A stretch of DNA of 64,000 nt, from the NCBI RefSeq assembly GCF_000737315.1, contig NZ_JMCB01000003.1, positions 217,394 through 281,393 on the forward strand, written 5' to 3'; not shown here. Continued below: a report on this DNA, generated by a model with database tools. The DNA comes from Hyalangium minutum. Its GTDB lineage: Bacteria > Myxococcota > Myxococcia > Myxococcales > Myxococcaceae.

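Follow-up and report, generated by a model that had tools for sequence, protein, structure and literature searches.

Toxin end of the Rhs gene and the genes beside it

The base composition of the window Rhs gene changes at its 3' end. The deaminase toxin tip (44295-44768) has a GC content of 0.55 and a GC3 of 0.69, compared with 0.70 and 0.87 for the remaining gene, and the fall starts past the DPSGL cleavage motif. The low GC content of this tip suggests that it is a horizontally swapped toxin module. Two genes follow:

within 44769-46247, convergent to the Rhs gene: gene of a 488-aa Ser/Thr kinase whose C-terminal tail is Cys-rich
46186-47517: Rpn/YhgA-type Transposase_31 gene (recombination-promoting nuclease-like)

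The window toxin is followed by no immunity gene (44769-46247). The kinase gene ends 12 nt past the Rhs stop and has a GC3 of 0.74, likewise under average. The Transposase_31 gene contains a 12-bp tandem repeat of 10.5 copies (47223-47348), which is translated as (EGKA)n close to the C-terminus of the protein. The location of this gene beside the variable toxin end may bear on recombination.

Variation of the Rhs protein among relatives

At the C-terminal end, the Rhs orthologue of a metagenomic relative (L010, about 20100-21650) carries a different domain, with the JAB/MPN-like motif HTHPGG...S..D. On this frameshift-rich contig, the domain gave a weak Prok-JAB match against Pfam (E=0.002), and neither HINT nor deaminase was detected in the L010 protein. 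At the N-terminal end, the window Rhs has a segment of ~300 aa (residues about 25-335, window 30790-31725) that is missing in the Stigmatella and Melittangium orthologues and aligns weakly to those of Myxococcus and Corallococcus. In a more distant orthologous locus (L019, 5250-5891), the gene at the Rhs position also overlaps the PPIase stop by ATGA, and its product, partial as the contig ends early, has at its N-terminus a signal peptide of SPI type (…GAARA|AS) in place of a lipobox.

Outside the window, the genome of H. minutum DSM 14724 also codes for a 2,032-aa protein that is bona fide teneurin-like, with FN-plug, NHL and YD-shell (PMC13018210, Supplementary Data 2 and 3); this and the window Rhs are separate proteins.

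Long antisense ORFs lie opposite both large genes of the window:

11909-20893, - strand: antisense ORF, 2,994 aa, opposite the giant gene
32229-37700, - strand: antisense ORF, 1,823 aa, opposite the Rhs gene

Both were rejected as genes, since they are without coding-type GC3; we regard them as shadow ORFs, which are usual in a genome with 70% GC.

A residue of the PPIase His pair

In H. minutum, Gln replaces the first residue of the His pair that is canonical for parvulins (PPIase residue 134, window 30253-30255). Several orthologues share this substitution, the Myxococcus clade among them, and most others have His; H222 is identical throughout the orthologue alignment. A PPIase with Gln at position 134 may have lowered isomerase activity while retaining chaperone function.

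The two ends of the giant gene

Most cysteines of the giant protein (46/59) are gathered in its C-terminal tail (window 27755-29854), where six CxxGxDxDGDGxxD acidic double-disulfide repeats separate beta modules. This tail is common only to the window and its closest relative (L015), different modules taking its place in Stigmatella, Melittangium and others.

At the other end of the gene, Hyalangium-type contigs L007 and L016 carry parvulin genes 5' of the giant gene:

within L007 5201-8659 and L016 5814-8264, - strand: SurA_N-parvulin lipoprotein gene, divergent
within L007 5201-8659 and L016 5814-8264, + strand: second parvulin gene

Only in L007 does a trypsin-like (S1) lipoprotein gene lie immediately 5' of the giant gene. 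L007 and L006, both contigs of the same Hyalangium sp. MAG, each contain a giant-gene 5' end with 82-84% identity to the window. The genes preceding it differ, namely HEAT-repeat, cNMP-binding and MshEN genes in L006 and the parvulins in L007. One MAG thus has two giant-gene 5' ends with unlike upstream genes; either the giant gene has a paralogue there or the bin is mixed.
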